Positions 95 to 23,240 of a stretch of 23,240 nucleotides of DNA are shown here, in pieces. The stretch comes from Promethearchaeota archaeon (GTDB lineage Archaea > Asgardarchaeota > Lokiarchaeia > Sigyniarchaeales > SOKP01), in the NCBI GenBank assembly GCA_019058015.1, contig JAHLWH010000083.1:1-23240 (forward strand), given 5' to 3'. Under the pieces are notes generated by a model. It was not told the origin of the DNA, made no database searches, and saw only the letters and a program-made list of their open reading frames with translations. Position 1 is the stretch's first letter. Every line of letters begins with the position of its first letter. The translations under genes and the position numbers were made by a program.

Positions 95-1528
95 ATGAGT
101 GAAATTGATGAGTTCGAATTAACTGATATAAAGAGCGATAAAAAACGAGAAAAGAATTCAGATATTTCCAAAGAAGTTAGTGATAACTACATTTCATATA
201 AGGAATTTATGAAAACTGTTAAAAAAACGAGAATTTTACCTTCTTCTTATAAGAATTTTCCACATTTTGATGAGATATCCGCAGAAAAGCAAATAGAGGA
301 TATAAAAGTAGGGAAAAAAAAAGGACCGATTGATAATGAGCAAACTTTTGATATATACTCTGGAGATATTAGCGATGATAACGCTGAAGAGAGTAACAAA
401 CACGTTTCTTATGAGGAGTTTTTAAGAAGGGTTAAAAAAACTAGGATCACACCCCTTTCTTCAGAAGGTTTACCAAATTTTGGTGAAAGATCTCTTGAAC
501 AACCACTAAATGATACAAAAGCAGGTAAAAAGAAAGTTGAGATTGAAAATAAGCAGGCTTTTGATATGTATTCTGGAGATATTGATGTAGATAAGGCTGA
601 AGGGAGGAACAAACACGTTTCTTATGAAGAGTTTTTGAGAAGAGTTAAAAAAACAAGAGTCACACCTCTCTCTACAGAGGGTTTACCAAATTTTGAAATG
701 AAACCTCAAGAACAAATCATAAAAGATGGTATTGAAGTTAAGAAGAAAATTGAGAACGATGATGAAAAAATATTGGTCTTTAAATCAAAAAAAGAGGAAA
801 AAAATTCAGAAACAATTGAGAATATATCAAAAAAAATTGAAAATAAAACAAAAAAAGAGTCTATTAAGAAGAGTGATGAAAAGGTAAAAGAGGAAAAATC
901 AAAAGTAGAAGAGGAGAAGAAAAAAGAGATTAAAAAATCTAAAGAAGAGACATTGGAAGAAAAGCAAAGATCCAAAGAAATTAACGGAGAAAAAGAAAAA
1001 TCAGAAGAAGAAATAAAATCAGAATCCTCTTTAGTGAATGATGAGAAAAAAGAATTACCTTCAGAAAAGCAAAAATCTCAAGATATCAAAAGAGAAGGAG
1101 AAAAAACGGATCAAAAGCAAGAGAAGAAGAAAGAAGAGAACTGGAATGAGATATTAAGAAAAAAGACCAGAGAGGAGAGAGAGGAGCAGATTTGGAACGA
1201 TCCAGAAAAAGAAGGAATACACAGTGATATGTTGAAATTAAATAATGAATCCAACGATATAGAATCTATAAGAACAAAAATTAAAAAAGTGGAGCCTTTA
1301 AAGGAGAGTATAAAAGAAGAACAAAACCTAGAAGATTTAAGAAAGGGTTTAAAAGGGGGTTTAGAAGAGGATATAAGTAGGACCAAGGGAGAGGGGGATT
1401 TTAAAAATTTAAAAATACCAAAAGATCTCTTTTATAAAGGAAAAAATGGTTATAACTGCAAGGATGAAAATTTGTTAAAGAAAATATATGAGACACAAAA
1501 ATCATTTACTAAAACTGATTATACCTAA
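95..1528 (+). CDS. Lys/Glu-rich tandem-repeat protein, copy A (unknown function)
   Basis: Long ATG ORF of 477 aa. It holds three 71-aa units (xSYEEFLRRVKKTRxTPLSxEGLPNF...FDMYSGDI...), followed by a K/E-rich low-complexity, coiled-coil-like region. A clear paralog lies at 11547..12888 on the minus strand. No recognised family. Confidence 0.6.
   Translation: MSEIDEFELTDIKSDKKREKNSDISKEVSDNYISYKEFMKTVKKTRILPSSYKNFPHFDEISAEKQIEDIKVGKKKGPIDNEQTFDIYSGDISDDNAEESNKHVSYEEFLRRVKKTRITPLSSEGLPNFGERSLEQPLNDTKAGKKKVEIENKQAFDMYSGDIDVDKAEGRNKHVSYEEFLRRVKKTRVTPLSTEGLPNFEMKPQEQIIKDGIEVKKKIENDDEKILVFKSKKEEKNSETIENISKKIENKTKKESIKKSDEKVKEEKSKVEEEKKKEIKKSKEETLEEKQRSKEINGEKEKSEEEIKSESSLVNDEKKELPSEKQKSQDIKREGEKTDQKQEKKKEENWNEILRKKTREEREEQIWNDPEKEGIHSDMLKLNNESNDIESIRTKIKKVEPLKESIKEEQNLEDLRKGLKGGLEEDISRTKGEGDFKNLKIPKDLFYKGKNGYNCKDENLLKKIYETQKSFTKTDYT
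191..790 (+). repeat. In-frame tandem repeat, 213-bp period, about 2.8 units (191-403, 404-616, 617-~790)
   Basis: DNA-level similarity is visible, for example cacgtttcttatgaggagttttt at 401 versus cacgtttcttatgaagagttttt at 613. It encodes the 71-aa protein repeat. Confidence 0.8.
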
Positions 1529-2972
1529 AAAATCAAGATTGTGAAAATATTCCAAATAGTTCTACGATACAACGATTAGCTCAAAAGTCATTTAAATCTA
1601 AATTAGAATATAATACTTGGAGACATGATATTAAATTAAGAGAAGTTCAAGAGATCGCCAAGGAGAGAGGTGGGGAATGTCTCTCTACTGAATATAAAAA
1701 GAGTCTTACCAAATTAAGATTTCAATGTAAGAATGGACATGAATTTGAAGCTACACCAAATGCTGTGAAAAATAAGGACCATTGGTGCCCTACATGTTCG
1801 GGAGTTAAAAAATTAACTTTAGAAGAATTTCAAGAGAGAGCCAAAGAGAGAGGTGGGGATTGTCTCTCTACTGAATATAAAAATAATTACACAAAATTAA
1901 GATTTCGATGTAAAAACCGACAGGAATTTGAAGCTACACCAATTGCTGTGAAGAATAAGAACAATTGGTGTCCTAATTGCACAAGAAATAAAAAATTAAC
2001 GCTTAAAAAGTTTCAAGATATAGCAAAAGAGAGAGGAGGGGAATGTTTATCTACTGAATATAAAAATATTGGCATAAAATTAAGATTTCAATGCAAGAAT
2101 GGACACGAATTTGAAGCTACACCAAATGCTGTGAAGAATAAAGACTCTTGGTGCCCTACATGTGCGGGAGTTAAAAAATTAACTCTTGCAGAAGTTCAAG
2201 AGACCGCCAAGAAGAGAGGTGGAGAATGTCTCTCTTCCGAATATATAGATAGTAAAAGTAAATTGAAATTTCGATGTAAAAACGGGCATGAATTCGAAGC
2301 TATTCCGAATGATGTTAGATCCAAGCATTCTTGGTGTCCTATTTGCGCAGGAAATAAAAGATTAACGCTTAAAGAGTTTCAAGATATAGCAAAAGAGAGG
2401 AGAGGGGAATGTTTATCTACTGAATATAAAAATATTATCACAAAATTAAGATTTCGATGCATGAATGGACATGAATTTGAAGCTATTCCGAATGATGTAA
2501 AATTTAAGGACTCTTGGTGTCCCATTTGCTCTGAAAGAGCCGGTGAGAGAGTTTGTCGAGGTCTTTTCGAAGGTATATTTAATAAGGATTTTGAAAAAGC
2601 TAGACCTGAATGGTTAAAAATAGTGCAGGTCATCAATTGGAGTTAGATGGATATAACGACGAATTGAAGCTTGCTTTTGAGCGCCAGGGAGAACAACATT
2701 ATGAATGGCCTAACTATTTCCACAAGACCGTAAAAGATTTTATATCACAATTGTCTAATGATCAACAAAAGGAAGAACTGTGCGAGACGCATGGAGTAAC
2801 CTTAATTGAGGTTCCTTATCGGATAAAATTTGAAGAATATCAAGATTATATCATTAAACAGTGCAAAAAGAGAGGAATAAATGTCCCTCAAATGAAAAAT
2901 AAAATAGATTGGAAAAAATTTAAGTGGGATACCAACGATGATAGCAATAGATCATTAAAGGAATGGATTTAA
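1519..2972 (+). pseudogene. Tandem zinc-ribbon (5x) protein with a C-terminal PD-(D/E)XK-like endonuclease domain; frameshifted, with no start codon for the first unit
   Basis: Five 60-aa units match KLTLxEFQxxAKERGGECLSTEYKNxxxKLRFxCKNGHEFEAxPNxVKxKxxWCPxC. The C-terminal segment ...ARPEWLK/NSAGHQLELDGYNDELKLAFERQGEQHY...LIEVPY is split between ORFs 1765..2646 and 2610..2972 at an A5 run (2616-2620). The frame is open from 1519 but has no ATG, GTG or TTG before GTG 1765, although the first repeat unit starts at about 1633. Confidence 0.6.
1633..2535 (+). repeat. Tandem 180-bp coding repeat x5 (zinc-ribbon units)
   Basis: Near-identical blocks such as gccaaagagagaggtgggga(a/t)tgtctctctactgaatataaaaa recur every 180 bp. 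Confidence 0.85.
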
Positions 2973-8708: not shown

Positions 8709-9179
8709 TCAATTGATTAAAGTTATATTTATGAAATCATCTGGATTATTAATCATATGATTTATTTCAGAGAGTAATTGATTTAAATCAAAGCTCTTTT
8801 TTAAATTGAATTCAATTGGCCAAATTCCAATAATAACATCTCCAATTGATTTTACATTCCCTATTAGTATTCCCTTTCTCATGCTATTTGATTTCAACGT
8901 ATAGAGAAGAATATAATAATAAGGGCAATTACTGAATTGAAAGTCTTTTCCTAATTGGAGAACTTCCTTAATATTTTGAAAAAAGAAAATGTTTTCTCTC
9001 TTTATTGTTAATTCTTTTATTTTATTGATAAAGGCTGGCTCAATCTTTACTGGTTCTTTTAAAGATAACACTTCAAAAGTTAAATTTAAAATATTTTCCT
9101 CTGAATCTAAAAATCCTTTAAATAGAACTTTATAAAACTTTCTATCATCATCTTTTTTTATATTTTTGTTTGACAACAT
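8709..9179 (-). CDS. Hypothetical protein
   Basis: 156-aa ORF immediately downstream of SUI1 on the same strand, overlapping it by 32 nt. No recognised motifs. Confidence 0.45.
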   Translation of the reverse strand: MLSNKNIKKDDDRKFYKVLFKGFLDSEENILNLTFEVLSLKEPVKIEPAFINKIKELTIKRENIFFFQNIKEVLQLGKDFQFSNCPYYYILLYTLKSNSMRKGILIGNVKSIGDVIIGIWPIEFNLKKSFDLNQLLSEINHMINNPDDFINITLIN

Positions 9180-9507
9180 TCCGAATTTCTATATTTTCTT
9201 CTGGAAAACCATTATCTATTAAAAATTTTTTTATTTTAAGTCGATGATCACCTTGGAGTTCTATTGTTTTGTTTTTAACTGTTCCACCGGAAGCACAAAA
9301 CTTTTTTGCCTTTTTTGAGAAATCATTTAAATTTATATCAATATTTCCTAGAAAAGAAACAACAGTAACCCATCGACCCCATTTCCTTCTTTCAGTATAA
9401 ATATCAACACGTTGTTCCTCTTGACCTAACGATTCACAAATACATAAATCCTTAGGAAAAGAGCATTTTGGGCAGATATTTTGGTCATTAGGTATTTTTC
9501 TATACAC
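9148..9507 (-). CDS. sui1: Translation initiation factor aSUI1/eIF1 homolog
   Basis: N-terminal CPKCx7CIC zinc knuckle. SUI1 core is ...RVDIYTERRKWGRWVTVVSFL...FCASGGTVKNKTIELQGDHRLKIKKFLIDNGF. Confidence 0.9.
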   Translation of the reverse strand: MYRKIPNDQNICPKCSFPKDLCICESLGQEEQRVDIYTERRKWGRWVTVVSFLGNIDINLNDFSKKAKKFCASGGTVKNKTIELQGDHRLKIKKFLIDNGFPEENIEIRNVVKQKYKKR

Positions 9508-10324: not shown

Positions 10325-10447
10325 GCCTCAGTAGCTCAGTCGGTAGGGCATCGTTAAATATGGTGTGCCAAAAGCACTCGGCTGTTAAATAATTTAACAG
10401 ATTGTACAGCCACCGAGCGGTCACATGTTCGATCCATGTCTGGGGCG
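10325..10447 (+). tRNA. tRNA-Asn(GTT) with two introns (10347..10372 in the D arm; 10388..10411 canonical 37/38)
   Basis: Acceptor is GCCTCAG/CTGGGGC with discriminator G. Anticodon stem is CTCGG/CCGAG and the loop is CTGTTA|A. T arm is ACATG-TTCGATC-CATGT. The canonical intron shows CTGT/ACAG exon-intron pairing with bulged splice sites. Removing 10347-10372 gives the consensus D arm GCTCAGTCGGTAGAGCA. That intron has a relaxed BHB with 3 of 4 central base pairs. Confidence 0.85.
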
Positions 10448-11532
10448 CTTTTTTTTATTTTGCTTTTCATTTTGTTTTGTTTTTAAAATCTTTAAAAAAA
10501 TATCAATATCTTTATCTTTAAGAAACTGTTTTGCTTCTCTATAATTTTTTGGGCCATTTGGACCAAATATTTCTTTTATTATTCTATTTATTGTTGGACC
10601 AGAGATGTTATATTTTTTTTTTAAATCCTTCTTTAGGATCTTATTTTTTATATCAGTTAGAAACTCTTTCTTATTAGATATTTATTTATCTTTCCACCTC
10701 TTTTCCGCTGCTTTAAGCATCTTTTCTTTAAATTCGGGAGTTTCTCTTACTTTTTTCTGCTTTTTTTGATATTCTTTATCTTTCCACCTCTTTTCCACCC
10801 CTTTACTTACTTTTTCTCGATGTTCTGGATCTTTCCACTTATTTTCCTTTCCTTTTCTATGTTTTTCTTTAAATTCGGGAGTTTCTCTTACTTTTCTCTG
10901 ATTTTTTTGATATTCTTTATCTTTCCACTTCTTTTTCATTCCTTTACTCACTCCGTTGCTTACTTTTTCTCGATGTTCTGGGTCTTTCAACTTCTCTTCC
11001 ATTGCTGTACTCACTCCTTTACTTACTTTTCGTTGATGTTCTGGGTCTTTCCACTTCTCTTCCATATATTTTTTTATTTTTTCTTTTACTTCTGGTCGTA
11101 ATTTTCCGCCCTCTCCACCATCACTCATATTATAACCTTTTTTGGGATTCATTGAATTATATTTCTTAATCCAATCCTTTTCTTTCTCATCTAATTCTTT
11201 TTGGTTATTTGCAGTATCAATTTTTTTAATAGAAAATGCTTTTCCCCATATTTTCTAATACTATTTTGCAAATGTGGAGAACTATAACTCTTATTTTTAG
11301 CATCTTTTATGTGTTCTTTCCATCTTTCTTCCCATTTTTTTCTTGTAGTTTGTCCAATATATACTTTTCCATTTACTGTGTTTGTTGCTTTATAAATATA
11401 TCCATAAGACTGTTCAAATTCTTTCTTTGGCTCTAAAAATTCATTTGAAACCTTATCTGTAAGGGCTTCTTTCTTGTTTTCCTCTTGCTTTATATTTACA
11501 TCTCTCCTTTTTTCAATCGCTTCCGAAGTCAT
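10421..11532 (-). pseudogene. GIY-YIG homing-endonuclease-like gene (GIY-YIG domain, basic NUMOD-like repeats, C-terminal HTH), multiply disrupted
   Basis: ORF 11191..11532 encodes YGYIYKATNTVNGKVYIGQTTRKKWEERWKEH...YGEKHF. The rest of the domain (ELDEKEKDWIKKYNSMNPKKGYNMSDGGEGG) continues in another frame after a T7 run at 11221-11227. Repeats of WKDPEHREKVSKGV / WKDKEYQKxQxKVRETPEFKEK follow. There is an in-frame TAA at 10682-10684, then ISNKKEFLTDIKNKILKKDLKKK. A frameshift at the T10 run 10613-10622 leads to YNISGPTINRIIKEIFG (HTH-like). The reading frame runs into the 3' end of tRNA-Asn. Confidence 0.7.
10449..10456 (+). terminator. Oligo-T tract directly after tRNA-Asn
   Basis: T8 run starting 2 nt after the discriminator base. 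Archaeal RNAP terminates at oligo-T. Such runs are common in this AT-rich DNA. Confidence 0.35.
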
Positions 11533-11546
11533 CTTATTCTTAATTT

Positions 11547-12888
11547 TTAATTATTTTTTACCTTTTTAAAATCCGAGTTTTCTTTATTTGATATGTTTTC
11601 GCTTCCATTCAATTCTTGCTTTTTTTGCTCTTGTTTCTCTTGGTTAGAAAGTAGGTTTTTTAATTCTTTAGCCTTTTCTTTTGAAATTTGCAATTCGTCT
11701 TTCAATTCTTCGCTTTTTTGTTTTTGTTTGAGCTCAATCTTTTTCTTTTCTAATACCTCTCCCTTTTTTACTCTTAATTTTTCATTATTTATTATTTCAG
11801 AGTGAGAAAAATTATCGTTAAATTCTGTTAATTGTTTCTCAATTTGTGCGTTTTCTTTTGTTAATTCTTTTAATTTTTTTTCATATCCTTCACGCGTTAT
11901 AATTCCGTTAAAAATTCCCTCTTGTAATTTCTTTATACTATGATCAATTAAATTGTTATTGTTGTTTCGTTGTTTTTCTAAATCATTAATTTTATTTGTA
12001 ATATCTTTAATTTCTTTGTACTTTTCTAAATGCTCCTTCGTCACTTTCTTTTTCTCAATCTCTTTCTCCTTCTCTTTCTTCGGTTCACTAATTTTTTTTT
12101 TTTCACTTGAAATATCTCGCTTATTTTTTGTATCTATATTTTTTGATTTTTTTTCCTTTATTTTTTCACTTTCTTTACTATCCTTTTCCTTAACTTTTTT
12201 TTGTTCTTTATGTTCTCGGTTAATATCTTTGGATTTTTTCTTTTCTTCCAAAATTTCTTCTTTAGATTTTGAAGTCTCTTTTCTCTTCTTCTCTTCAACT
12301 TTTGATTTTTCCTCTTTTACTTTTTCATCACTATTTTTAATAGGCTCTTTTTTTGTTTTATTTTCTACTTTTTCTGAGGTCTTATCAATTTTTTCTGAAT
12401 CATTTTTTGATTTAAATACTAATAGATTTTTATTATCGCCTTTAACTTTCTTTTTACTTTCAATACTATCCTTTGATATTTGCTCTTGAAGTTTCTTATC
12501 AAAATTTATTAAACTCTCTGAAGGGAGAGGTGTGATTCTAGTCTTTTTAACACTTCTTAGAAAATCCTCATAAGAAATTCTTCTATTACTCTCCTTAGCG
12601 TTATATAGATCAATATCCCCTGAATGCATATCAAAAGTATATTTATTTCCATTTATACCTTTATTTTTATCTGCTTTTGTATCTTCTATTAGTTGTTCTG
12701 GAGATCTTTCATCAAAATGTGGAAACTTTTTATAAGAGTAAGGCAAAATTCTCGTTTTTTTAAACGGTTTTCATAAATTCCTCATATGAAACATAGTTAT
12801 CACTAACTTCTTTCGAAGTGTCTGATTTCTTTTCACGTTTTTTATCACTCTTAGTATCTTTAAATATATTTCCGCTAATTCCACTCAT
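11547..12888 (-). pseudogene. Lys/Glu-rich tandem-repeat protein, copy B; N-terminal 47 codons separated by a 1-nt frameshift
   Basis: ORF 11547..12746 is paralogous to 95..1528 (YKKFPHFDE..., ISYEDFLRSVKKTRITPL..., NSDEKVKEEKSKVEEKK). Upstream, 12747-12888 encodes MSGISGNIFKDTKSDKKREKKSDTSKEVSDNYVSYEEFMKTV. This matches the copy A N-terminus but is out of frame because of one extra base at 12762-12764 (gttt+A7 versus gtt+A7 in copy A). It has two 71-aa units instead of three. A 399-aa product from ATG 12746 remains possible. Confidence 0.65.
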
Positions 12889-13161
12889 TTTACATCAATA
12901 TGTCAATTTTTACAAATTTTATTTTATTGATGAACTCTAATTAAAAAAATTATAAATTGAAACTATTTAAATAAAAAAAGAGAGATTTGGTTATAAAATT
13001 CAATATCTAAATAATTTTTTAATTAAGTTATAACTTTAAATAAAGAATCTCCATAGTTCTTTGATAAAATCAAAATTATATCACTAACATTCGTAAGTAC
13101 CCAAAAGCTGCAATAATTTTCGATTTTTTTAAATAATAAGGATTAAAGAATAATATTTTTA

Positions 13162-13255
13162 TGCTCTCGCCGGGATTCGAACCCGGGTCACCAGGGTGAA
13201 AGCCTAGCATGCTTAGCCTCAATTTTAAAGTTTGGCCGAGCTACACTACGAGAGC
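13162..13255 (-). tRNA. tRNA-Glu(TTC) with a ~19-nt intron in the D loop/stem junction (about 13213..13231)
   Basis: Acceptor is GCTCTCG/CGAGAGC with discriminator A. Anticodon stem is CTAGG/CCTGG and the loop is CTTTCAC. The variable loop is 4 nt. T arm is CCGGG-TTCGAAT-CCCGG. D region GTGTAGCTCGGCCAA...CATG has 19 extra nt. A GGCC/GGCT 4-bp helix is flanked by AAA and AAG bulges. Boundaries are +/-2 nt. Confidence 0.8.
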
Positions 13256-13431
13256 AAATTTTTTTTTTTAATTAATTTATTGAAAAATATTAATAATAAA
13301 ATTAAAATTTATTTATGAGGTTTTTTCTTAAATTAAAAAAAACAAATTAAAAATTATCATAATATAAATATTTTAATGAAAAAATTATTTTCTATATAAT
13401 ATTATAGGAGTATAACTATAATTTGAAAAAT

Positions 13432-20294: not shown

Positions 20295-21545
20295 GTGCTA
20301 ATCGGTGTAGTAGGGAAATTATTTTAGAATATTTATATAAAAAGATTCTAATTTAACCCTAAACCTTCTTCCGGTAAAAGTACATTCTTAAATAGTGCTT
20401 GTTTAACTCATGCTAAAGTTGGAGATTATCCCTTTACAACTATCGATCCTAATAAAGGAATAGGATATGTTAAAAAACCGTGTGTATGCAAAGAATTAAA
20501 TGTTAAGGATAATCCTAAGAATTCAAAATGTATAGAACAAATTCGTTTTATTCCTATTCAATTATTAGATGTAGCTGGTTTAGTTCCAGGAGCTCATGAA
20601 GGGAAGGGGCTTGGGAATAGATTTTTGAGTGATTTAAGCCGAGCAGATATACTATTACATATTATTGATATTACTGGATCTTTGGATGCGAATGGAAATA
20701 CAGTAGAGTCAGGGTCCCATGATCCTTATAAAGATATAATGTTTTTAGAAGACGAAATAAATTTATGGTTTAAAGGAATTATTGAAAGAGAGGATTGGGA
20801 AAAATTCTCAAGGAGAGTTATTAAGGGGAGGAATGAGCTTATTGAAGCATTGTATCAAAGATTATCTGGATTATCTATTAAAAAGAATGATATAGAGAAA
20901 TCAATTGAAAAATCTAATTTAGATGGAAAGCCAATATCTGAATGGGATAAAGCAGAACTAAATATTTTTTCAAAATTTCTTAGAGAAATCTCTAAACCGA
21001 TAATAATAATTGCTAATAAAATTGATAAAGAGATTGGTATAAAAAAAATGGATGAGCTAAAGAAAAAATATAAAAAAAAAATTATTCCATGCAGCGCTTT
21101 AGCAGAATTAATTCTTAGGAAATATAATAAGGAAGGTATTATCAAATATATGCCTGGTGATACTGATTTTATTATAATTAAAAAAAAGAATCTAAAAGAA
21201 AATGAATTGGAAACTCTAGAAAAGATTAGAGAAAAATTATTACAGGGAATTGGAGGTACAGGAGTTCAAAAAACATTAAATTATGCAGTATTTTCTTTAT
21301 TAAACCAAATTACTGTATATCCTGTTGCAAATTTAAATACTTTATCAGATAAAGATGGAAATGTACTCCCTGATGTCTTTTTAATTAGAAAAGGAATAAA
21401 ATTACGGGAATTTATTAGAGAAAAAATTCATACTGACTTAGCAAAACATTTTATTTACGGAATGGAGGTAAAATCGAAAATGAAATTAGGAGAGAATTAT
21501 TTTTTAAAAGATAATGATGTGATAAAAATTTTTTCAGCAAAATGA
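20295..21545 (+). CDS. Ygr210/Obg-like GTPase with C-terminal TGS-like domain, interrupted by a 45-nt intervening sequence (exons 20295..20317 and 20363..21545)
   Basis: GTG 20295 begins (M)LIGVVGK, followed by 45 nt carrying two in-frame stops. Then PSSGKSTFLNSA...VGDYPFTTIDPNKG...DVAGLVPGAHEGKGLGNRFLSDL runs in frame with ORF 20625..21545. Deleting 20318-20362 gives the Walker A GVVGKPSSGKST. Confidence 0.75.
20318..20362 (+). other. Candidate bulge-helix-bulge (BHB-like) intron inside a protein-coding gene
   Basis: The central 4-bp helix is AGGG (20312-15) paired with CCCT (20357-60). Each strand continues into an AAA bulge (20316-18 and 20361-63). The inner helix pairs 20319-21 with 20354-56, 20324-30 with 20345-51, and 20332-34 with 20341-43, closing a 6-nt loop. 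The outer exon-exon helix is weak. Splice positions (2 nt into each bulge) restore the reading frame exactly. Confidence 0.6.
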
Positions 21546-21840: not shown

Positions 21841-22269
21841 ATGTATAATAAAATCACAAATTATGATGAGATATATAAAATATTAGAAAGTTTATTTAAT
21901 CCTCAAAGCACAAAATTTAAAATTATTTTAGGAACAGAGGAAGGTTTAATTTTTTTTTCAAACATAAAAACGGGAGAAAAATTAATTGCATCTTTTAAAA
22001 AAATTTTAGATATTTTTTATTCAATTAACTATAAACAATTATATTTATTGAAAAAATTAATAATTCAAACAAATAATATGTATTCAATAATATTTCCTTT
22101 AAGCATTAATGTTGAAAAATATATTGTTTGGATTGAGTTTCCAAAAGGATTCTCAAGCAGGAAATGTATGATTAAAGCAGAAAATATAATAAAAAAAATA
22201 AAAGGTCTATTTTATATGAATTCAATAAAAAAAATGGACCTGACGGGAATTGAACCCGTGACCTCTTGA
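21841..22269 (+). CDS. Hypothetical protein, possibly Roadblock/LC7-like
   Basis: 142-aa ORF. The segment KIILGTEEGLIFFSN...LIIQTNNMYSIIFPL resembles Roadblock/LC7. The last ~35 nt overlap tRNA-Ala on the opposite strand, so the C-terminal residues (DLTGIEPVTS) are read-through of tRNA sequence. Confidence 0.4.
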   Translation: MYNKITNYDEIYKILESLFNPQSTKFKIILGTEEGLIFFSNIKTGEKLIASFKKILDIFYSINYKQLYLLKKLIIQTNNMYSIIFPLSINVEKYIVWIEFPKGFSSRKCMIKAENIIKKIKGLFYMNSIKKMDLTGIEPVTS

Positions 22270-22372
22270 ACTCTTGGCCTCTTGAATGAAAATCAATCAA
22301 GCTAACGTGCAAGTCAAGCCTAAGTTTGAGTGCGAGACCGAACCCAATGATCTTCCACTGATCTACAGGCCC
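22235..22372 (-). tRNA. tRNA-Ala(TGC) with two introns (22320..22348 at position 25/26; 22271..22307 canonical 37/38)
   Basis: Acceptor is GGGCCTG/CAGGTCC, including the G3:U70 alanine identity pair, with discriminator A. D arm is GATC-AGTGGAA-GATC. Anticodon stem is CTTGA/TCAAG and the loop is CTTGCA|T. Variable loop is AGGTC. T arm is ACGGG-TTCAATT-CCCGT. The canonical intron has CTTG/CAAG exon-intron pairing. The first intron has a TTGGG/CTCAA inner helix and a 3-of-4-bp central helix. Confidence 0.8.

Positions 22373-22499: not shown

Positions 22500-23240
<741 letters not shown>

Follow-up and report, generated by a model that had tools for sequence, protein, structure and literature searches.

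As a rule, the archaeal splicing endonuclease (EndA) cuts its substrates between residues 2 and 3 of each bulge (PMC2738675), and canonical pre-tRNAs place the exon strand of the 4-bp helix on the 5' side of the 5' bulge (PMC4090602). Asgard archaea are reported to possess an (αβ)2 EndA with an L1 loop, which confers a broad specificity that includes relaxed bulge-helix-bulge (BHB) motifs (PMC5829648). EndA-dependent splicing of mRNA has been established for cbf5 in some Crenarchaeota and for the 5' untranslated region (5'UTR) of HVO_1309 in Haloferax (PMC2738675, PMC7714728, PMC10485636), and most of the cbf5 introns are likewise of the relaxed kind (PMC2738675). A 2023 review counted "at least two" archaeal genes that are spliced in this way and considered it likely that more exist (PMC10485636). 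Our literature searches found no report of BHB introns in protein-coding genes of Asgard archaea. Here we describe an insert of 45 nt, at positions 20318-20362 (+) of a stretch of 23,240 nt from a Promethearchaeota archaeon (contig JAHLWH010000083.1 of assembly GCA_019058015.1; hereafter the window), that interrupts the Walker A (P-loop) codons of a gene for a YGR210/YchF-type GTPase. An earlier note on this stretch had singled out the insert as a candidate mRNA intron and had regarded cbf5 as essentially the only precedent, which is nearly correct, the exception being the HVO_1309 5'UTR of Haloferax (PMC7714728, PMC10485636).

In our view the insert is very probably a genuine endonuclease-type (BHB) mRNA intron of Promethearchaeia, i.e., Asgard archaea of the Lokiarchaeia type. 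The observations that carry this reading are the anatomy of the insert, its conservation and covariation among related loci, the coding selection on both exons, and the occurrence of a second, parallel intron in the same codons of another lineage. From these sequences we infer that the insert is cleaved out and the exons ligated in vivo, and by which enzymes. The claim rests on the comparative data rather than on the fold, because the signal obtained from the window by itself is moderate. The intron would add a second archaeal example in a coding sequence, after cbf5, and the first in Asgard archaea.

The interrupted GTPase gene and its orthologues

The frame VLIGVVGK is opened by a GTG at 20295-20297 (+). 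Exon 1 (20295-20317, +) consists of this GTG and 7 2/3 further codons, reads (M)LIGVVGK and ends at base 2 of the Lys codon. In the unspliced RNA the frame continues as LF and reaches a TAG at 20325-20327, with a TAA following at 20349-20351, and its coding potential is limited to a 10-residue peptide. Beyond the stops of the insert the same frame resumes as PSSGKSTFLNSA...DYPFTTIDPN, and in the window no in-frame start codon lies between the last of these stops and PSSGKST. Deletion of the 45 nt at 20318-20362 generates ...GGG AA↓A CCT TCT TCC GGT AAA AGT (the arrow marks the junction), which is translated as GVVGKPSSGKST, and opens a reading frame of 401 codons that ends at 21545. Exon 2 (20363-21545, +) extends from PSSGKST through the stop codon and encodes the remainder of the YGR210-like/YchF-related GTPase. 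The earlier note had described both this N-terminus with its stop-containing insert and the recovery of an uninterrupted Walker A motif on its removal; we verified the coordinates and the sequence, and the full 401-codon open reading frame (ORF) is obtained along with the motif.

The spliced protein matches the Pfam families MMR_HSR1 (residues 3-121), YGR210-like_G4 and TGS. Its residues 1-399 align with residues 1-394 of PDB 1wxq_A (E=8e-103), gap-free across the junction, with MEIGVVGKPNVGKSTF at the spliced N-terminus versus MLIGVVGKPSSGKSTF in 1WXQ, a Pyrococcus GTP-binding protein of solved structure. After splicing, the ORF has its full length and is colinear from residue 1 with both this protein and intron-less orthologues. 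By these matches the gene product is identified as a YGR210/YchF-type GTPase of the Obg family, and the gene is essential-looking.

A homology search with the spliced protein revealed that for all relatives with more than ~70% identity (P0001, P0002, P0007, P0012, P0021, and P0029) the annotated protein lacks the N-terminus and has 326-353 amino acids. Those with at most 65% identity are full length (~403 amino acids), are named YchF-related GTPases, and come from metagenome-assembled genomes (MAGs) of Promethearchaeota, Loki-, Thor- and Hodarchaeota. The 90%-identity protein cluster contains truncated calls (306, 326, or 349 amino acids) in 32 out of 32 members and no full-length protein.

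An alignment of orthologous GTPase loci, which had been suggested as a check, yielded nine distinct loci with what we call the type-1 insert: the window, L008 (Promethearchaeia ABR01), L001, L009, L003, L004, L005 (WORB4), L006, and L007. They derive from independent ENA, JGI, Logan and NCBI assemblies, including GTDB genomes and JGI metagenomes. The insert is found at the identical nucleotide in all nine, with its structure kept. It measures 44, 45, or 47 nt, and in five of the nine loci the two exons are out of frame with each other. The unspliced frame hits a TAG three codons past the junction in every locus, and in silico splicing yields a 401-amino acid ORF from each. Read-through or an altered genetic code is ruled out by the five inserts that are not multiples of 3 and by the TAG present throughout.

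Pairwise amino acid identity among the nine loci is 73-94%, and the ratio of nonsynonymous to synonymous substitution (dN/dS) is 0.08-0.20, with dS as high as 1.5-2.0. The start codon of exon 1 is GTG, ATG, or TTG at one and the same position, and all remaining differences in this exon are synonymous third-position changes (CTA/CTG, ATC/ATT, GGT/GGA, GTA/GTG). The first codons of exon 2 also vary only synonymously, and the region from the insert to the first internal start codon (20363-20624) is open and conserved in all nine loci, none of which shows further lesions. The decaying pseudogene, which the earlier note had named as a possible outcome, is ruled out by the dN/dS values and the nine intact 401-amino acid ORFs. 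The nearest genomes are Promethearchaeia/Promethearchaeota MAGs, in agreement with the "Asgard-like" origin that had been proposed for the window. Intron-less relatives also occur (L012, L028, L038, L039, P0036, and P0039). The interrupted coding sequence is thus under purifying selection, and the intron site is conserved in related loci, with a patchy presence of the intron itself.

Fold, covariation and a second insert

The elements that the earlier note had described, i.e., an AGGG/CCCT helix with AAA 3' of each strand and an inner hairpin, are all present. The central 4-bp helix is formed by the exonic 5' strand AGGG (20312-20315, +) and the intronic 3' strand CCCU (20357-20360, +). The 5' splice-site bulge AAA (20316-20318, +), to be cut AA↓A, is unpaired in both the minimum free energy (MFE) and the consensus fold, and the 3' splice-site bulge AAA (20361-20363, +) would likewise be cut AA↓A; both are invariant in the nine loci. 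The intron-internal hairpin (20319-20356, +) has arms at 20319-20330 and 20345-20356, in which 10 out of 12 positions are paired, and a loop at 20331-20344. The layout equals that of canonical pre-tRNAs (PMC4090602). The central helix and two 3-nt bulges on opposite strands are therefore in place, with a 3' bulge that can also be drawn as 2 nt or as AAC. The MFE of 91 nt is -22.2 kcal/mol (z=-3.0), and z=-1.5 for the 68-nt core alone. With the register fixed at 45 nt, 30 out of 22335 positions of the window pass a loose BHB test (~0.13% per register), which corresponds to a chance of ~0.5% over four registers. The evidence from the window alone is suggestive and moderate, short of decisive.

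A generic scan of the whole window for BHB motifs combined with ORF merging gave thousands of matches in this 28%-GC DNA and is uninformative. No known RNA family was found inside the insert, as the only Rfam matches in the window at the gathering threshold are small-subunit rRNA and one tRNA. A group I or group II intron, for which a ribozyme core of hundreds of nt would be expected, or an intein, for which an in-frame protein-splicing domain would be expected, was rejected on the small size of the inserts (44-47 nt, with stops or frameshifts) and on the lack of an Rfam match.

The comparison of the nine type-1 sequences (alignment A1, used for pairing, covariation and RNAalifold) is more informative. 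The pattern AGGG-AAA...CCYU-AAA is invariant across the nine loci; in the central helix every cell is paired, a single change from G-C to G-U included. Six pairs of the inner helix show compensatory changes on both sides, and the pair next to the 5' bulge alternates between UA and CG in a 5:4 ratio. Pairing reaches 88.9% of cells for the structure as a whole and drops to 32-56% on sliding the partners by 1-3 columns. The same helices emerge from RNAalifold, together with a 3-bp GGU/ACC helix. The absence of a BHB upon folding or covariation analysis, against which the earlier note had cautioned, is countered by the invariant central helix and bulges and by the covarying inner helix.

A second insert, which we call type 2, measures 31 nt and lies 5 nt downstream of the type-1 site, in the same Walker A codons of orthologous GTPase loci of a separate lineage. 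It was found at L027 (1091-1121), an orthologue with 59% identity, and also in L035 (GCA_019058445.1) and L037. Its junctions in L027 are GGA AAG CCA A↓G...UA↓GT TCT GGC, and with an MFE of -27.3 kcal/mol it folds into a textbook hBHBh' motif, which comprises a 9-bp outer helix, the central helix AGCC/GGCU with AAG and UAG as its bulges, and an inner helix of 8 bp. Canonical cuts between bulge residues 2 and 3 restore GKPSSGKST and an ORF of 403 amino acids. Each of the 21 pairs of this fold is preserved in all three sequences, one of them through a compensatory change from C-G to U-A. Gene callers have read through this intron in the frame of exon 2, leading to proteins that start with MSESQVL.K.CIKRLSSGKST (P0121, P0122, and P0123). 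The truncated relatives of L027 (P0124, P0126, P0093, and P0128) were considered as further cases, but are intron-less where the DNA was read (L038, L039) and reflect choices of start codon. The type-2 intron is absent from ~90%-identical relatives of L027 (P0036, P0039, and L039) and from the 79%-identical L038; its distribution is patchy. The two types of insert share no sequence. An independent gain of the two intron types would be the simplest reading, because the inserts are unrelated in sequence and are separated by intron-less lineages. Every prediction that a BHB intron makes at the sequence level and that lent itself to a test was borne out.

Splicing weighed against other explanations

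Based on these data, splicing can be envisaged as follows. In the transcript, the central helix of 4 bp would arise from pairing of the terminal exonic AGGG with the intronic CCCU, with an AAA bulge 3' of each strand; one side would be stacked by the intron-internal hairpin and the other closed by a weak exon-exon pairing. The (αβ)2 splicing endonuclease of the host would then cut both sites between bulge bases 2 and 3, and an RtcB-type ligase would join GGGAA to ACCU, which would produce the Walker A codons for GKPSSGKST and the ORF of 401 amino acids. The expected k-mer at the spliced junction is GGTGTRGTAGGGAAACCWTCYTCYGGTAAAAG, and those at the unspliced junctions are GTAGGGAAAYTA and CCYTAAACC; a circular intron would have the junction ...CCCTAA joined to ATTATTTTAG.... 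Probably, the intron is a passenger, either neutral or selfish, and would be retained because its imprecise loss within the P-loop would be lethal, as has been argued for cbf5.

Several points weigh against this explanation. The earlier note had equated the frame-restoring junction with the canonical cleavage position between bulge nt 2 and 3; this coincidence is real but fourfold degenerate, because both bulges are AAA and an intron starting anywhere from 20316 to 20319 gives the same product. The AAA/AAA identity hence leaves the cut register ambiguous, and it would also suit a pair of take-off and landing codons. The outer helix that adjoins the 3' bulge comprises only 2-3 bp (GGU/ACC) and is weak in the window sequence, where it is mismatched (A20309 opposite C). 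Folding, another of the proposed checks, did give the expected helix, bulges and hairpin, but the MFE structure draws a 5-bp UAGGG/CCCUA helix with the 3' bulge shifted to AAC, and the RNAalifold consensus pairs the third A of the 3' bulge with U20311, leaving a 3' bulge of 2 nt. Because of the weak helix beside the 3' bulge, we class the modeled type-1 motif as relaxed rather than as a strict hBHBh', and its cleavage would depend on an enzyme of broad specificity; neither a gene for a broad-specificity EndA nor one for the RtcB ligase is present in the 23-kb window. The distal closing helix, AUCGG (20301-20305, +) with CCGGU (20371-20375, +), is 100% paired in the nine sequences, but displays one-sided changes only (C-G/U-G and G-C/G-U) and is weak evidence because both strands are coding. 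None of 500 shuffles matched the observed pairing or covariation score, but the sequences are related and these statistics, consequently, overstate the significance. Finally, a look-up of eight exact spliced proteins in a collection of 15 billion proteins found none of them.

In programmed translational bypassing, or "hopping", which is known from phage T4 gene 60 and the yeast mitochondrial byp elements, the mRNA would stay unspliced: peptidyl-tRNA-Lys would leave the AAA at 20316-20318, slide over the structured 45-nt gap and land on the AAA at 20361-20363. This would agree with the identical in-frame triplets at the ends of the gap, AAA/AAA in all nine type-1 loci and AGU/AGU in all three type-2 loci, with a hairpin that begins directly after the putative take-off codon, and with gap sizes of 31-47 nt, a range that is spanned by the known bypass elements. 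However, a stop or stall signal directly after take-off is absent, the TAG being located two codons on in type 1 and ten in type 2. Nor does bypassing predict that the end of the exon and the end of the insert form a 4-bp helix and that each junction follows a strand of this helix by precisely 2 nt, a geometry which occurs in two unrelated inserts and in the intron of the window's tRNA-Glu (see below). The identity of the triplets is already explained by A-rich bulges, which are typical of the BHB sites of this organism. To the best of our knowledge, translational bypassing has not been described for archaea. EndA and RtcB, in contrast, are universal there (PMC4090602). It seems, therefore, highly unlikely that the ribosome hops over the insert.

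Equally improbable, in our opinion, is that the gene is broken, or gives an N-terminally truncated product, as a result of an old insertion (e.g., of a small mobile element) that leaves the P-loop unrestored. It is true that gene callers annotate only truncated ORFs of 306-353 amino acids. However, the 20363-20624 region, which precedes the first internal start codon, has stayed open and conserved in all nine loci, and exon 1 has kept its start codon and changed only synonymously while dS saturates. No in-frame start exists between the last stop of the insert and PSSGKST, and a protein devoid of G1-G3 would not be a GTPase, given that MMR_HSR1 covers residues 3-121. Other lesions were found in none of the loci, and the window holds no second copy of the insert at up to 3 mismatches. 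A miniature inverted-repeat transposable element or insertion sequence also lacks support from the architecture, since there is no terminal inverted repeat geometry and the CCCU at the 3' end of the insert is complementary to the exon, not to the insert's own 5' end; moreover, the insert occupies the orthologous position across dS >1.5.

An assembly artefact, against which the earlier note had cautioned, a sequencing artefact or a chimeric contig could be suspected from the low-GC (28%), metagenome-type sequence of the window and from the frameshift in an A-run near 2610-2646, which shows that errors or pseudogenes may occur. This explanation is effectively refuted by the independent assemblies: unrelated samples and assemblers have yielded the insert in nine or more distinct sequences, which differ in its length and by substitutions specific to each lineage.

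Other genes of the window, implications and known systems

The tRNA genes in the window are all interrupted. The tRNA-Glu(UUC) gene (13161-13256, -) carries a 19-nt non-canonical D-loop intron (13231-13213), whose removal leads to a clean tRNA; ARAGORN calls Ser(tga) or Leu(gag) at this position. The intron sites are GGCC-AA↓A...GGCU-AA↓G, without an inner helix, so that the remark in the earlier note on AAA-type bulges at non-canonical tRNA introns holds for this gene. The 138-nt gene at 22235-22372 (-), just downstream of the 3' end of the 16S rRNA, is best read as a tRNA-Ala(UGC) with two introns, a relaxed one of 29 nt at 25/26 (~22348-22320) and a canonical one of 37 nt at 37/38 (~22307-22271). 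The tRNA-Pro(CGG) with a 65-nt intron that ARAGORN reports here was rejected on the basis of G3:U70, the CUUGCAU loop and the position near the 16S 3' end. Because the tRNAs of the window carry non-canonical introns, the endonuclease of this organism appears to handle relaxed, non-canonical sites with A-rich bulges. At 10325-10448 (+) there is a 124-nt tRNA-like gene that probably has at least two introns; ARAGORN forces it into a "Phe(aaa)" call in which one arm is abnormal and the intron measures 25 nt. The end of the window truncates an archaeal 16S rRNA gene, of which model positions 740-1478 are present (22502-23240, -). At the corresponding side of the related loci L004 and L035 a LAGLIDADG_3 ORF occurs, which suggests rRNA introns with homing endonucleases in these relatives.

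Among the protein-coding genes, ORFs 1765-2646 and 2610-2972 (+) resemble one gene of repeated zinc-ribbon units with a C-terminal ...PEWLK/NSAGHQLELDGY... domain. The break looks like a frameshift in an A-run near 2610-2646 and is not a BHB intron; it could stem from an error in sequencing, from decay into a pseudogene or from programmed frameshifting. ORFs 9148-9507 and 8709-9179 were considered as a split gene but are separate genes. The region 10682-11532 (-) contains a GIY-YIG-like N-terminal ORF (11191-11532) and, after it, an ORF with KWKDPEHR/KDKEYQK repeats (10682-11152); these may be one split homing-endonuclease-like gene or two genes. Two large lysine- and glutamate-rich ORFs, at 95-1528 (+) and 11547-12746 (-), have repeats in common (ISYEEFLRRVKKTRITPL...FPHFDE...), by which they are assigned to one paralogous repeat-protein family.

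With two independent introns in one motif, the GTPase gene would offer a natural system for studying the gain and loss of BHB introns in mRNAs. The public annotations of this universal GTPase are wrong in these MAGs, being either truncated (306-353 amino acids) or a read-through of the type MSESQVL.K.CIKRL-SSGKST, and this affects gene-completeness metrics and phylogenies in which the GTPase is used. The long-standing question of how far protein-only mRNA splicing (of the HAC1/XBP1 type, with RtcB) extends back into the archaea also becomes directly testable. A more far-reaching idea, which we put forward only tentatively and consider doubtful at present, is that BHB introns are active, recurrent invaders of protein-coding genes of Promethearchaeia rather than a one-off. 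On this view the two unrelated introns (44-47 nt and 31 nt) would have entered the Walker A codons 5 nt apart in separate lineages, and their absence from close relatives would point to continuing gain and loss, with mobility possibly via reverse splicing or recombination. If this were true, many more endonuclease-spliced mRNAs would be hidden behind "truncated" Asgard gene calls, and a routine layer of protein-only mRNA splicing would exist in those archaea that are most closely related to eukaryotes.

How the GTPase intron compares with known systems depends on which feature is considered. The bypass elements (T4 gene 60 and the Magnusiomyces mitochondrial byps) share with it a short structured coding gap with identical in-frame end triplets, but the GTPase insert lacks an adjacent stop or stall signal, has the exact BHB geometry and resides in an archaeal host. 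HAC1/XBP1 splicing in eukaryotes, by IRE1 and a tRNA ligase or RtcB, is likewise spliceosome-independent and protein-only and removes a short mRNA intron defined by stem-loops, with a tRNA-splicing ligase and a change in reading frame (PMC13149111). The nuclease, however, is IRE1 and not EndA/TSEN, the RNA motif is different, and the process is regulated by stress, whereas no regulation is evident for the GTPase. The BHB intron in the 5'UTR of HVO_1309 of Haloferax volcanii is also an mRNA substrate of the splicing endonuclease (PMC7714728; PMC10485636), but its location leaves the ORF intact without splicing, and it belongs to a euryarchaeon whose enzyme is of the strict α2 type.

The non-canonical tRNA introns of the hBH and HBh' types (Marck and Grosjean, 2003; PMC4090602) share the structural signal and are presumably processed by the same enzymes; the core of the window's tRNA-Glu intron, GGCC-AAA...GGCU-AAG, is nearly that of the mRNA introns. 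They differ in that the host RNA of the GTPase intron is an mRNA, where precise excision is read as frame and not as cloverleaf. The cbf5 intron of Crenarchaeota (Watanabe et al., 2002; Yokobori et al., 2009; PMC2738675) comes closest in its situation. Its splicing has been demonstrated by complementary DNA and in vitro cleavage, whereas that of the GTPase intron is predicted from sequence. The gene concerned here is an Obg-family YGR210/YchF-type GTPase of mesophilic Asgard archaea (Promethearchaeia) with 28% GC, its exon 1 has just 23 nt, and two unrelated introns occur 5 nt apart in different lineages. Both systems, however, have a short intron within a conserved housekeeping coding sequence, a relaxed BHB with predicted cuts between bulge residues 2 and 3, a host with an (αβ)2 EndA, and a patchy phylogenetic distribution that implies gain and loss. 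The cbf5 intron lies in the codon for the catalytic Asp and both GTPase introns lie in Walker A, i.e., each time in the most constrained motif of the protein.

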